DNA of 64,000 bases, taken from assembly GCF_017348835.2 (NCBI RefSeq), contig NZ_CP071375.1; one strand, written 5' to 3'. The translations under genes and the position numbers were made by a program. Source of the stretch: Escherichia coli. GTDB taxonomy: Bacteria > Pseudomonadota > Gammaproteobacteria > Enterobacterales > Enterobacteriaceae. The notes under the pieces were generated by a model. That model was given only the letters and a program-made list of their open reading frames with translations, was not told the DNA's origin and ran no database searches. Numbering within the stretch: position 1 is the first letter of the stretch; each line of letters opens with the position of its first letter. This document shows, one piece after another, positions 13,163 to 63,909 of the stretch.

Positions 13163-13489
13163 ATGACTAAAAATACTCGTTTTTCCCCCGAAGTCCGTCA
13201 GCGGGCGATTCGTATGGTTCTGGAAAGTCAGGATGAATATGACTCACAATGGGCGACAATTTGTTCCATTGCTCCAAAGATTGGCTGTACGCCGGAGACT
13301 CTGCGTGTCTGGGTTCGCCAGCATGAGCGGGATACCGGGGGCGGTGATGGCGGGCTCACCACCGCTGAACGTCAGCGTCTGAAAGAGCTGGAACGTGAAA
13401 ATCGTGAACTGCGCCGCAGTAACGATATCCTTCGCCAGGCTTCCGCTTATTTTGCGAAGGCGGAGTTCGACCGCCTCTGGAAAAAATGA
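13163..13489 (+). CDS. IS629-like transposase OrfA (helix-turn-helix / leucine-zipper part)
   Basis: 108 aa [26 protein letters not shown]...; recognised as IS3-family (IS629/IS1203 group) OrfA. Confidence 0.9.
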
Positions 13490-14376
13490 TGCCACTGCTG
13501 GATAAGCTGCGTGAGCAGTACGGGGTCGGACCGCTATGCAGCGAACTGCATATTGCCCCGTCAACGTATTACCATTGTCAGCAACAGCGACATCATCCGG
13601 ATAAACGCAGTGCCCGTGCGCAGCACGATGACTGGCTGAAGAAAGAGATACAGCGCGTATACGATGAAAATCACCAGGTATACGGTGTGCGTAAAGTCTG
13701 GCGTCAGTTGTTACGGGAAGGTATCAGAGTGGCCAGATGCACTGTGGCACGTCTCATGGCAGTTATGGGACTTGCCGGTGTTCTCCGGGGTAAAAAGGTC
13801 CGCACTACCGTCAGCCGGAAAGCCGTTGCCGCATGCGACCGCGTAAACCGTCAGTTCGTGGCAGAACGTCCAGACCAGTTGTGGGTGGCTGATTTTACCT
13901 GGGTAAGCACATGGCAGGGCTTCGTTTATGTGGCGTTCATCATTGATGTGTTCGCCGGATACATCGTGGGATGGCAGGTCTCATCATCCATGGAAACAAC
14001 ATTCGTGCTGGATGCACTGGAGCAGGCGTTGTGGGCCCGTCGGCCGTCCGGCACAATCCATCACAGTGATAAAGGTTCTCAGTATGTATCGCTGGCCTAC
14101 ACGCAGCGGCTTAAGGAAGCCGGATTACTGGCATCAACAGGGAGTACTGGCGACTCGTATGACAACGCGATGGCGGAGAGCATCAATGGTCTTTACAAAG
14201 CGGAGGTAATACACCGTAAGAGCTGGAAAAACCGGACAGAAGTGGAACTGGCCACACTCACGTGGGTGGACTGGTATAACAATCGACGATTGCTGGAAAG
14301 GCTGGGCCATACTCCCCCGGCAGAAGCAGAAAAAGCTTATTATGCTTCCATCGGAAACGATGATCTGGCAGCCTGA
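13486..14376 (+). CDS. IS629-like transposase OrfB (DDE catalytic part), in the -1 frame relative to OrfA
   Basis: 296 aa ORF with DDE-integrase features (HHSDKGSQY..., conserved acidic residues), overlapping orfA by 4 nt (ATGA). Confidence 0.9.
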
Positions 14377-24399: not shown

Positions 24400-24505
24400 C
24401 ACGCCAGATGCGGCGTGAACGCCTTATTCGACCTACAAAACTATGCAAATTCAATACATTGCAGGAGTCGAATAGGCCTGACAGGCGTAGCACGTCAGAC
24501 GGTGT
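24400..24505. repeat. REP / BIME-like palindromic repeats between nadE and cho (boundaries approximate)
   Basis: Two oppositely oriented units resembling the REP consensus (GCCAGATGCGGCGTGAACGCCTTATTCGACCTACA and GTCGAATAGGCCTGACAGGCGTAGCACGTCAGACGG). Confidence 0.5.
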
Positions 24506-60991: not shown

Positions 60992-62287
<1,296 letters not shown>

Positions 62288-62433
62288 AACTATCAGCCGG
62301 GTCATTATCGCCTGGCTGATTTTTAGCTTACTGTAAATTATCTCATTTATTACATACATTAGCTTACAATCGCTTTAAATATGACAGCATAACCTTTACA
62401 TAATTTAGTTCCAGAAAACAATCATTCGGAAAA

Positions 62434-63909
62434 ATGATTCAGTCAACACGTATTTCCATGGGGTTATTCTTTAAATATTTTTTATCGTTAACGAAAATTG
62501 ATCCTGGTCAAAGCTATATATCTCTGCCGTCAATAAAATCCAGCACTCACATTGCTCTCCTTTTTATGGTTTCTATGGGTACACAAAAATTAAAAGCTCA
62601 AAGCTTTTTTATTTTCAGTTTATTGCTGACGTTAATTTTATTTTGCATCACCACATTATATAACGAAAACACGAATGTAAAACTCATCCCACAGATGAAT
62701 TATCTGATGGTCGTTGTGGCTTTGTTTTTCCTTAACGCCATCATTTTTCTTTTCATGTTAATGAAATATTTCACTAACAAACAAATTCTACCAACACTCA
62801 TTTTAAGTCTTGCATTTTTAAGTGGCCTTATCTATTTAGTTGAAACTATTGTTGTTATCCATAAACCTATCAGCGACAGCACACTGATCCAGACAAAGTC
62901 GAATGATGTTTCTATTTTCTATATTTTCCGCCAACTCAGTTTTATTTGTTTAACCTCGTTGGCGCTCTTTTGTTATGGCAAAGACAACATCCTGAACAAT
63001 AATAAGAAAAAAACGGCAATCCTGTTGCTGGCGCTGATCCCTTTTTTATTTTTTCCCGTTCTGGCACACAATCTGAGCAGTTATAACGCTGACTATTCTT
63101 TGTATGTCGTCGATTACTGTCCTGACAACCATACTGCGACCTGGGGAATCAACTATACAAAAATATTGGTTTGTCTGTGGGCATTTTTACTGTTCTTTAT
63201 TATCATGCGTACACGATTAGCCAGCGAACTATGGCCATTAATAGCATTATTATGTCTGGCATCGCTATGCTGCAACTTACTTCTACTGACTCTGGATGAG
63301 TATAATTACACCATCTGGTACATCAGTCGCGGGATTGAAGTCTCCAGTAAACTGTTTGTTGTGTCTTTTCTGATTTATAACATTTTTCAGGAGCTGCAAC
63401 TCTCCAGCAAACTGGCAGTTCATGATGTGCTGACCAATATTTATAATCGGCGCTACTTTTTCAACAGCGTAGAGTCATTATTGTCGCGACCTGTTGTTAA
63501 GGACTTTTGTGTCATGTTGGTTGATATTAATCAGTTCAAACGCATCAATGCCCAATGGGGACATCGTGTGGGTGATAAAGTGCTGGTATCAATTGTCGAT
63601 ATTATCCAGCAAAGCATCCGCCCCGATGATATTTTAGCGCGACTGGAGGGTGAGGTGTTTGGCTTGCTATTTACCGAACTCAATAGTGCCCAGGCAAAAA
63701 TCATTGCGGAACGTATGCGTAAAAATGTCGAACTCCTGACCGGCTTTAGTAACAGATATGATGTTCCTGAACAAATGACCATCAGTATTGGCACTGTTTT
63801 TTCAACGGGTGACACGCGTAATATCTCGCTTGTCATGACGGAAGCAGATAAAGCCTTACGCGAAGCGAAAAGCGAGGGGGGCAACAAAGTGATTATTCAT
63901 CATATTTAA
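62434..63909 (+). CDS. yeaI: Membrane-anchored GGDEF-domain protein with degenerate active site (EGEVF)
   Basis: 491 aa ORF with an AT-rich multi-helix membrane N-terminus and C-terminal GGDEF domain in which the signature reads RLEGEVF (63646..63660); recognised as YeaI (CdgI). Confidence 0.85.
   Translation: MIQSTRISMGLFFKYFLSLTKIDPGQSYISLPSIKSSTHIALLFMVSMGTQKLKAQSFFIFSLLLTLILFCITTLYNENTNVKLIPQMNYLMVVVALFFLNAIIFLFMLMKYFTNKQILPTLILSLAFLSGLIYLVETIVVIHKPISDSTLIQTKSNDVSIFYIFRQLSFICLTSLALFCYGKDNILNNNKKKTAILLLALIPFLFFPVLAHNLSSYNADYSLYVVDYCPDNHTATWGINYTKILVCLWAFLLFFIIMRTRLASELWPLIALLCLASLCCNLLLLTLDEYNYTIWYISRGIEVSSKLFVVSFLIYNIFQELQLSSKLAVHDVLTNIYNRRYFFNSVESLLSRPVVKDFCVMLVDINQFKRINAQWGHRVGDKVLVSIVDIIQQSIRPDDILARLEGEVFGLLFTELNSAQAKIIAERMRKNVELLTGFSNRYDVPEQMTISIGTVFSTGDTRNISLVMTEADKALREAKSEGGNKVIIHHI

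Follow-up and report, generated by a model that had tools for sequence, protein, structure and literature searches.

CdgI (YeaI) of Escherichia coli as a probable non-catalytic MASE4-GGDEF protein that retains c-di-GMP binding

The gene yeaI of Escherichia coli, now named cdgI, encodes a membrane protein of the GGDEF type in which the signature of diguanylate cyclases reads EGEVF instead of GG(D/E)EF, raising the question of whether this protein still synthesizes c-di-GMP, only binds it, or has no function left. Here, the question is addressed for the copy carried in the window, the whole stretch of 64,000 nucleotides that was analysed. In the ORF list, cdgI lies at 62434..63909 on the plus strand and encodes 491 aa (coordinates including the stop codon). 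The 1.7-kb stretch with this ORF matches, at 100% identity, the cdgI that RefSeq annotates in E. coli PE164, where the gene is placed between yeaH and dgcJ; in the window, yeaG and yeaH lie upstream of it. The yeaH-dgcJ slot and the near-identity to annotated cdgI place it in the cdgI orthologous group, and the name YeaI given in the preliminary description was correct. An intrinsic terminator of yeaGH (62292..62320, +), found in the terminator scan as an 11-bp stem followed by TTTTT and having a stem kept across genera, sets cdgI apart as its own transcription unit.

Of 5426 complete E. coli genomes, 5424 contain the 1.7-kb stretch and 5411 have the ORF at 80% or more of its length, while alleles at least 99% identical to that of the window were present in only 7 of the 5424. 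Compared with cdgI of K-12 (YeaI, b1785, NP_416299.1), the same gene at the same locus, 38 of 1476 nucleotides differ (97.4% nucleotide identity), 32 of them in the MASE4 part. The nine resulting amino-acid differences all fall inside residues 27-209, that is, in the N-terminal extension and MASE4, and the GGDEF domain (residues 320-491, including EGEVF and RPDD) is identical in amino acids. The gene is AT-rich, as had been described, with 38.6% GC (35.6% in the membrane part and 43.9% in the GGDEF part) against 49.7% for the window and 49.5-49.7% when yeaG and yeaH are included. The cdgI orthologs are likewise AT-rich (36-38% GC).

CdgI contains a MASE4 integral-membrane sensor domain (PF17158, E=1.2e-48) at residues 88-319 (62695..63390, +), matched over profile positions 5-237 of 239, and a GGDEF domain (PF00990, E=9e-45) at residues 328-485 (63415..63888, +), matched over profile positions 1-161 of 161, which place the protein in the MASE4 family and in the GGDEF superfamily, respectively. 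TIGR00254 scores 123 bits on CdgI, with a cut-off of 37.4; among the NCBIfam models, the generic GGDEF domain alone is above cut-off, and no cyclase equivalog model attains its own. In HMMER, 43 PDB cyclase sequences match the CdgI GGDEF domain at E<=1e-10. The large polytopic membrane module noted earlier at the N-terminus is supported by seven clear hydropathy segments and by eight long helices in the AlphaFold model (52-77, 87-114, 119-148, 152-180, 190-214, 239-260, 267-285 and 292-327), so that the module covers about residues 52-327, residues 226-237 forming a short beta-hairpin loop. The model has a mean pLDDT of 76.8, with most of the GGDEF part at 85-94. Eight helices were also predicted for the MASE4-type domain by Richter 2014 (PMC4287979). 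Using Foldseek against the PDB, CdgI matched PleD, WspR, DgcZ, DosC and GcbC with a probability of 1.00 and target TM-scores of 0.76-0.90 to isolated-domain and short GGDEF entries; this search recovered the GGDEF domain alone and no solved MASE4 relative.

The degenerate A-site corresponds to residues 405-409 at 63646..63660 (+), where the window reads GAGGGTGAGGTGTTT, with the codons GAG, GGT, GAG, GTG and TTT for E405-G406-E407-V408-F409. Directly before it, CGA and CTG encode R403-L404 in frame with the ORF at 62434..63909 (+), so that RLEGEVF is present in the right frame, as first reported. In HMMER alignments, "arlegevf" falls onto "srfggeef", "gryggeef" and "arlggeef" of solved active cyclases, and a MAFFT alignment of 16 sequences (CdgI, PleD, DgcJ and 13 MASE4-GGDEF relatives) places E405-G406-E407-V408-F409 on PleD G368-G369-E370-E371-F372. 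The PleD GGDEF sequence used was verified against PDB 1W25, 2WB4 and 9G86. Alignment to active GGDEF proteins thus confirms the active-site substitution, since EGEVF lies exactly on GG(D/E)EF, with positions 1 and 4 replaced. The substitution is specific and the domain around it aligns with confidence, which leaves no role for chance. In the AlphaFold model, EGEVF sits at the hairpin turn between strands 400-405 and 408-414. A true signature elsewhere in the domain was considered and ruled out: no intact GG[DE]EF was found at any other position of the CdgI GGDEF domain, and every alignment puts EGEVF on the motif. Among 5426 complete E. coli genomes, 5407 match a 54-nt stretch that contains the I-site and the A-site, and the match is exact in 3572. 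Two sampled full-length variants with one changed base have an identical synonymous C-to-T change, and a third sampled match ends 4 nt early at an IS1 insertion just past the motif, in one strain.

The remaining catalytic positions were compared with those of the Caulobacter crescentus protein PleD (1W25, 2V0N), which serves as the reference for an active cyclase, has the same fold (Foldseek probability 1.00) and differs in its input, with receiver domains where CdgI has the membrane MASE4 module. PleD D327, K332, N335 and D344 are retained as D364, K369, N372 and D381 (63523..63576, +), a stretch in which A373 replaces D336; PleD R366 and K442 are also retained, as R403 and K479. Besides D336, the losses are G368 to E405, E371 to V408 and R446, the ligand of the GTP gamma-phosphate, to G483 (63880..63882, +). 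In active cyclases, D327 and E370 bind metal, N335 and D344 the guanine, and K442 and R446 the beta/gamma phosphates (PMC7288161, PMC3509222). CdgI therefore has the metal ligand D327 and the guanine ligands N335/D344 in their equivalents D364, N372 and D381, which are invariant, and only one of the two phosphate ligands, K479 being present and the R446 position being G483. A change of E to V at motif position 4 has been reported to inactivate WspR, as cited from Malone 2007 in PMC3509222. The loss of cyclase activity that the preliminary description predicted from EGEVF fits the three substitutions at G368, E371 and R446, as read from the alignment.

Unlike the A-site, the I-site is intact. 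Its RxxD, R396-P-D-D399 (63619..63630, +), aligns to PleD R359/D362 and lies exactly five residues upstream of EGEVF with the spacer ILARL, and both R396 and D399 are invariant in the 16 aligned sequences. The secondary I-site arginine is also present, with R427 corresponding to PleD R390, and an R stands here in every member of the clade of relatives with a degenerate A-site (hereafter, the degenerate clade), two outgroup sequences having K instead. The conservation check of the I-site proposed at the outset is thereby answered. An intact I-site beside a degenerate A-site was described for CdgI by Sarenko 2017 (PMC5635695), where the purified GGDEF domain of K-12 CdgI was found to bind c-di-GMP (Fig. 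S4). The c-di-GMP-binding role suggested earlier holds up on both counts, the intact RxxD and R427 and the direct binding by an identical K-12 domain in the same study.

Much of this had been reported. In Richter 2014, the A-site of YeaI is described as degenerate and its I-site as intact (PMC4287979), Spurbeck 2012 lists the yeaI signature residues as KNAHDREGEVF in Table 1, and CdgI is described as catalytically non-functional by Cimdins-Ahne 2023 (PMC10459773). According to Sarenko 2017 (PMC5635695), CdgI forms strong heteromeric interactions with the GGDEF domains of other proteins in two-hybrid assays, its protein is undetectable under laboratory conditions, and cdgI is repressed by CsrA and toxic when overproduced. 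The degenerate A-site, the intact I-site and the binding of c-di-GMP were thus already known, having been published in 2012-2017; the naming of the protein in the K-12 RefSeq entry already takes account of this, and the EGEVF finding as first stated adds nothing new. The in vivo claims conflict, since two papers count YeaI as a working cyclase from indirect observations in cells, and the accessible literature yielded no in vitro assay that would directly prove CdgI to have zero cyclase activity.

From these observations, it is proposed here, with a probability of about 85%, that CdgI is an inner-membrane MASE4-GGDEF protein that does not synthesize c-di-GMP and still binds it. Three residues for GTP phosphate and metal handling are replaced (E405, V408 and G483), and judging from the residue roles, the condensation of two GTP should not occur. 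The allosteric I-site formed by R396xxD399 and R427 is intact and binds c-di-GMP, as shown for the K-12 domain of identical sequence. CdgI would then most likely be a c-di-GMP receptor or regulator, with a membrane signal presumably entering through the MASE4 module and an output that is probably protein-protein contact, including heteromeric GGDEF-GGDEF interactions. On this reading, CdgI would be anchored in the membrane as a receptor of c-di-GMP, or would antagonize other GGDEF proteins in a way that c-di-GMP modulates.

The papers that assign cyclase activity to YeaI lead to a different reading, in which CdgI is still a working diguanylate cyclase, perhaps weak or conditionally active. Papers that cite Sanchez-Torres 2011 report less c-di-GMP and higher motility in BW25113 when yeaI is deleted, and the RstA paper cites the same work for yeaI raising cellular c-di-GMP. 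Spurbeck 2012 counts YeaI among the proteins with "verified diguanylate cyclase activity", and in that study WspR complements the biofilm defect of CFT073 yeaI in no-salt LB; however, WspR failed to complement the yeaI defect in glycerol medium, and effects on c-di-GMP in vivo can be indirect, through heteromeric contacts with active cyclases. At the level of residues, D364, K369, N372, D381 and K479 are all kept, but motif positions 1 and 4 and the R446 equivalent are all lost. Furthermore, motif positions 3 and 4 drift among the relatives of CdgI while the rest of the domain has a dN/dS of about 0.08, and drift of the motif under constraint of the domain indicates that the catalytic motif is no longer a target of selection. 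A cyclase that still works is therefore considered very unlikely.

The retention of nucleotide ligands can also be explained by a degenerate A-site that serves as a sensing pocket for GTP or another guanine nucleotide, this being the main regulatory input in place of c-di-GMP at the I-site. The model for such a nucleotide-sensing domain is the GEDEF domain of Caulobacter PdeA/CC3396. In CdgI, N372, D381, D364 and K479 are invariant throughout the degenerate clade although catalysis appears lost, and this conservation of ligands exceeds the need of a purely structural role. Nevertheless, the phosphate ligand at R446 is gone, the acidic E405 stands beside the phosphate-binding turn, Pfam gives CdgI no partner enzymatic domain to regulate, and the binding that has been shown directly is that of c-di-GMP (PMC5635695). 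Nucleotide sensing as the main input is thus regarded as unlikely, and the preferred reading remains that of a non-catalytic protein with c-di-GMP at the I-site. Residual nucleotide binding by the A-site is possible, given the retained D364, N372 and D381 and the motif EGEEF found in one member of the degenerate clade (P0007).

Degenerate GGDEF proteins that act as c-di-GMP receptors through the I-site include PopA of Caulobacter, with receiver domains as partners, and PelD of Pseudomonas, with a GAF domain and transmembrane segments. Another is SgmT of Myxococcus (GGGVF, RxxD), which has V at motif position 4 like CdgI (PMC3509222). Both SgmT and CdgI have an inactivated A-site, have lost one of the K442/R446 phosphate ligands, keep RxxD and bind c-di-GMP (PMC3509222 for SgmT, PMC5635695 for CdgI). 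They differ in the partner domain, a histidine kinase in SgmT and MASE4 in CdgI, and unlike the SgmT-type receptors, CdgI has kept K442 (as K479) and lost motif position 1. The A-site losses in CdgI and in the SgmT-type receptors are independent and do not define one family.

The evolutionary setting of the loss was examined with a search of 5.8 billion proteins, which gave 39 CdgI relatives, 20 of which were aligned. Relatives 64-99% identical to CdgI carry EGEVF, EGDVF, EGEEF, DGEVF, EGNVF (in E. albertii) or EGKRF (in the locus L007), the EGEEF being that of the single protein P0007; one of the lineages with EGEVF (L006) is 77% identical. All members of this degenerate clade have GGN where active relatives show GRN or GKN, so that the R446 position is always G, and their motif position 1 is always E or D. 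Positions 3 (E/D/N/K) and 4 (V/E/R) drift, and the G at position 2, the F at position 5, RxxD, R427, D364, N372, D381 and K479 are constant. In contrast, three proteins 57-62% identical to CdgI (P0019, P0023 and P0025), two of them from Citrobacter, carry GGEEF and GRN, and more distant proteins similar to DgcT and DgcX have GGEEF with GRN or GKN. DgcT (YcdT) and DgcX, which are active cyclases of E. coli, and P0019, P0023 and P0025 have the same MASE4 and GGDEF domains and I-site as CdgI at 37-64% identity; these cyclases and the Citrobacter-type orthologs show GGEEF, R or K at the R446 position and ALY(E/Q)AK, where CdgI has EGEVF, G483 and ALREAK.

The loci of P0019 and P0023, the two examined, read yeaD-(yeaE)-mipA-yeaG-yeaH-[MASE4-GGDEF]-dgcJ-yeaK-yeaL-nimR-nimT, making these proteins positional orthologs of CdgI, and the degenerate members share the yeaG-yeaH-X-dgcJ context wherever context is available. 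The syntenic orthologs of the Citrobacter type thus keep GGEEF, GRN and ALYEAK. The split between GGEEF and degenerate motifs, taken together with synteny, indicates that the A-site was lost once, on the branch leading to the Escherichia-type clade. What this adds to the published picture is a catalytic motif lost in the Escherichia-type branch and canonical in Citrobacter, with motif positions that have drifted after the loss and an I-site and rest of the domain under strong constraint. CdgI would in this way be a clean natural example of a change from enzyme to receptor.

A gene that is AT-rich, associated with H-NS in a "promoter island", without detectable laboratory expression, toxic on overproduction, drifting in its motif and occasionally disrupted by IS1 could also be a decaying relic, silenced by H-NS binding, unexpressed and functionless. 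The rates of evolution bear on this in two ways. For pairs within the degenerate clade, with dS up to about 1.2, the Nei-Gojobori dN/dS is 0.064-0.104 in the GGDEF part and 0.063-0.109 in the membrane part. Of the neighbours, yeaH has 0.004-0.013, and dgcJ has 0.015-0.032 in the three lineages whose dS is not saturated. With about 0.07, cdgI thus evolves faster than its neighbours, as a relic might, and yet far from neutrally: for both domains, lineages with dS of 0.6-1.2 give dN/dS values far below 1. The near-universal length of the ORF given above, the invariant I-site and the reported binding of the regulators FNR, AppY, SrsR and RstA also speak against a functionless gene, which is considered extremely improbable. 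The pseudogene reading of cdgI was rejected by its dN/dS of 0.06-0.12 and its near-universal intactness. In the sequences compared, the low dN/dS argues for a retained, non-catalytic function of CdgI.

As a separate observation, the first 47 annotated codons of cdgI are not conserved as coding sequence and are open only in E. coli proper. The upstream frame contains stops or has no ATG in two Citrobacter-type loci (P0023 and L002), in the locus L007 and, on the Escherichia side, in E. albertii and four further lineages of that type. The ATG of Met48 (62575..62577, +) is the sole start codon common to all orthologs (MGTQK / MEKHK), and residues 1-51 have a pLDDT below 50 in the AlphaFold model. 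Met48 is therefore likely, from these comparisons, to be the true start of cdgI.

The approximately 290 bp from the yeaH stop to Met48 have four conserved blocks in the alignment of lineages, namely the stem of the yeaH terminator, ATCATTCGGAAAAA (about 62420-62433), TTGAT-N4-[AG]TCAA (62498-62511) and TA[AG]AAT (62534-62539). The third block is an FNR box, TTGATCCTGGTCAA in the window (62498..62511, +), placed inside the annotated N-terminal codons; it is conserved in nine of nine lineages, three of which have the perfect TTGATnnnnATCAA. The fourth block is a -10-like hexamer, TAAAAT in the window (62534..62539, +) and TAGAAT in some orthologs, which follows the FNR box after 22 nt. Of the nine lineages, which range from Escherichia to Citrobacter, eight have a spacing of 22 nt, and E. 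albertii has one of 21 nt. Transcription is predicted to start near 62546, which would place the centre of the FNR box at -41.5, the geometry of class II FNR-activated promoters.

The FNR-type box is not significant by itself: the window has a single match where 0.37 would be expected, and 23% of shuffles contain one or more. It is accepted here only because of its conservation across lineages and the published ChIP data. In Myers 2013, TTGATCCTGGTCAA is listed as a predicted FNR site "Within yeaI" with a PatSer score of 15.15 (Tables S5, S6 and S9), and an FNR peak in K-12, called from ChIP-seq data by three programs and also found by ChIP-chip, lies over it. The same study files the yeaI peak with those lacking an FNR-dependent expression change, in glucose minimal medium, and its Table S2 gives sigma-70 peaks that are increased anaerobically at yeaI. 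The sigma-70 promoter scan of 62200-64000 returned four matches, fewer than the 6.1 in shuffles, and did not report the FNR-linked -10 hexamer; this outcome would be expected if the promoter depends on an activator and lacks a -35 element.

Binding of FNR at cdgI was thus already known; what would be new is the geometry of the promoter, which is conserved across genera, and an annotated start that appears too far upstream. Put together, these suggest a tentative reading, held to be less likely than not, in which the first 47 codons are promoter DNA with a class II FNR site and CdgI is a c-di-GMP receptor of 444 aa induced anaerobically by FNR. If this is true, induction by FNR would name the "still-unknown condition" for CdgI expression, and the evolutionary change would be from an oxygen-regulated cyclase, with GGEEF as in Citrobacter, to an oxygen-regulated c-di-GMP sensor or cyclase antagonist. 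The proposed start codon and FNR promoter could guide the search for conditions that produce the silent CdgI.

After conversion of the K-12 coordinates of Myers 2013 to those of the window, one of the sigma-70 peaks lies near 62354, with a signal rising from 86 to 172. Additionally, an intragenic sigma-70 peak near 63322 rises from 16 to 408. It adjoins a hexamer at 63302-63307 that is a perfect TATAAT, and the summit of AppY binding by ChIP, at nucleotide 845 of the CDS, lies close to the peak.

The coding sequence of cdgI (yeaI; ORF 62434-63909, plus strand) was not kept across orthologs in its first 47 annotated codons (window 62434-62574). Upstream of Met48, the reading frame contains stops or lacks an ATG in E. 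albertii, four other Escherichia-type lineages, a further lineage with a cdgI ortholog (L007) and two loci of Citrobacter type; Met48 itself (ATG at window 62575) is common to all these orthologs. Residues 1-51 also have a pLDDT below 50 in the structure model. Here it is proposed that the true cdgI start may lie downstream of the annotated one.

Immediately 5' of the annotated ATG is the block ATCATTCGGAAAAA (62420-62433), which is kept even where the lineage has no ORF beginning there, and which includes a GGA, the core of CsrA-binding motifs. Repression of cdgI by CsrA has been reported.

Within the annotated N-terminal codons of cdgI lies the FNR box TTGATCCTGGTCAA (62498-62511), followed 22 nt downstream by a conserved TAAAAT (62534-62539). 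Their spacing corresponds to a class II geometry: relative to a transcription start predicted near 62546, the box is centred at -41.5. This layout is kept from Escherichia to Citrobacter. An FNR ChIP-seq peak at the same site has been reported in K-12 and labelled 'Within yeaI', with no expression change recorded (Myers 2013).

Further inside the gene (region about 63300-63325), a perfect -10 hexamer, TATAAT (63302-63307), coincides after coordinate conversion with the published sigma-70 ChIP-seq peak 'within yeaI', for which a 26-fold anaerobic increase was described (Myers 2013). The summit of an AppY ChIP-seq peak is found approximately 45 bp from this site. The hexamer may represent an internal or a spurious promoter within an AT-rich gene.

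Variation of cdgI within E. coli is concentrated in the part encoding the MASE4 membrane domain (within window 62434-63390), which contains 32 of the 38 nucleotide differences between the window gene and that of K-12; seven of the nine amino-acid differences between the two proteins are in residues 141-209, and the GGDEF part has four differences, all silent. An allele with 99% identity or more to the window cdgI over 1.7 kb occurs in only 7 of 5424 genomes. In E. coli ET791, the gene is split by an IS1B insertion (locus positions 1551-2320) directly after EGEVFGLL, which is one natural cdgI knockout among the few genomes without the full-length gene.

Just 3' of the cdgI stop, a terminator-like hairpin was seen by eye at 63927-63949, having in order GCCATGC, a TTTTT loop, GCGTGGC and TTTT; it was not among the elements reported by the consensus terminator scan. 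Elsewhere in the window, two overlapping plus-strand ORFs of 108 and 296 aa (13163-14376) flank an ALIL frameshifting pseudoknot (13444-13560; Rfam RF01497, 120 bits), an arrangement that looks like an IS3-family insertion sequence. Additionally, the small RNA ES036 (CssrF) was matched in Rfam at 24437-24479; the match scores 42.9 bits, above the gathering cut-off of 37.6.
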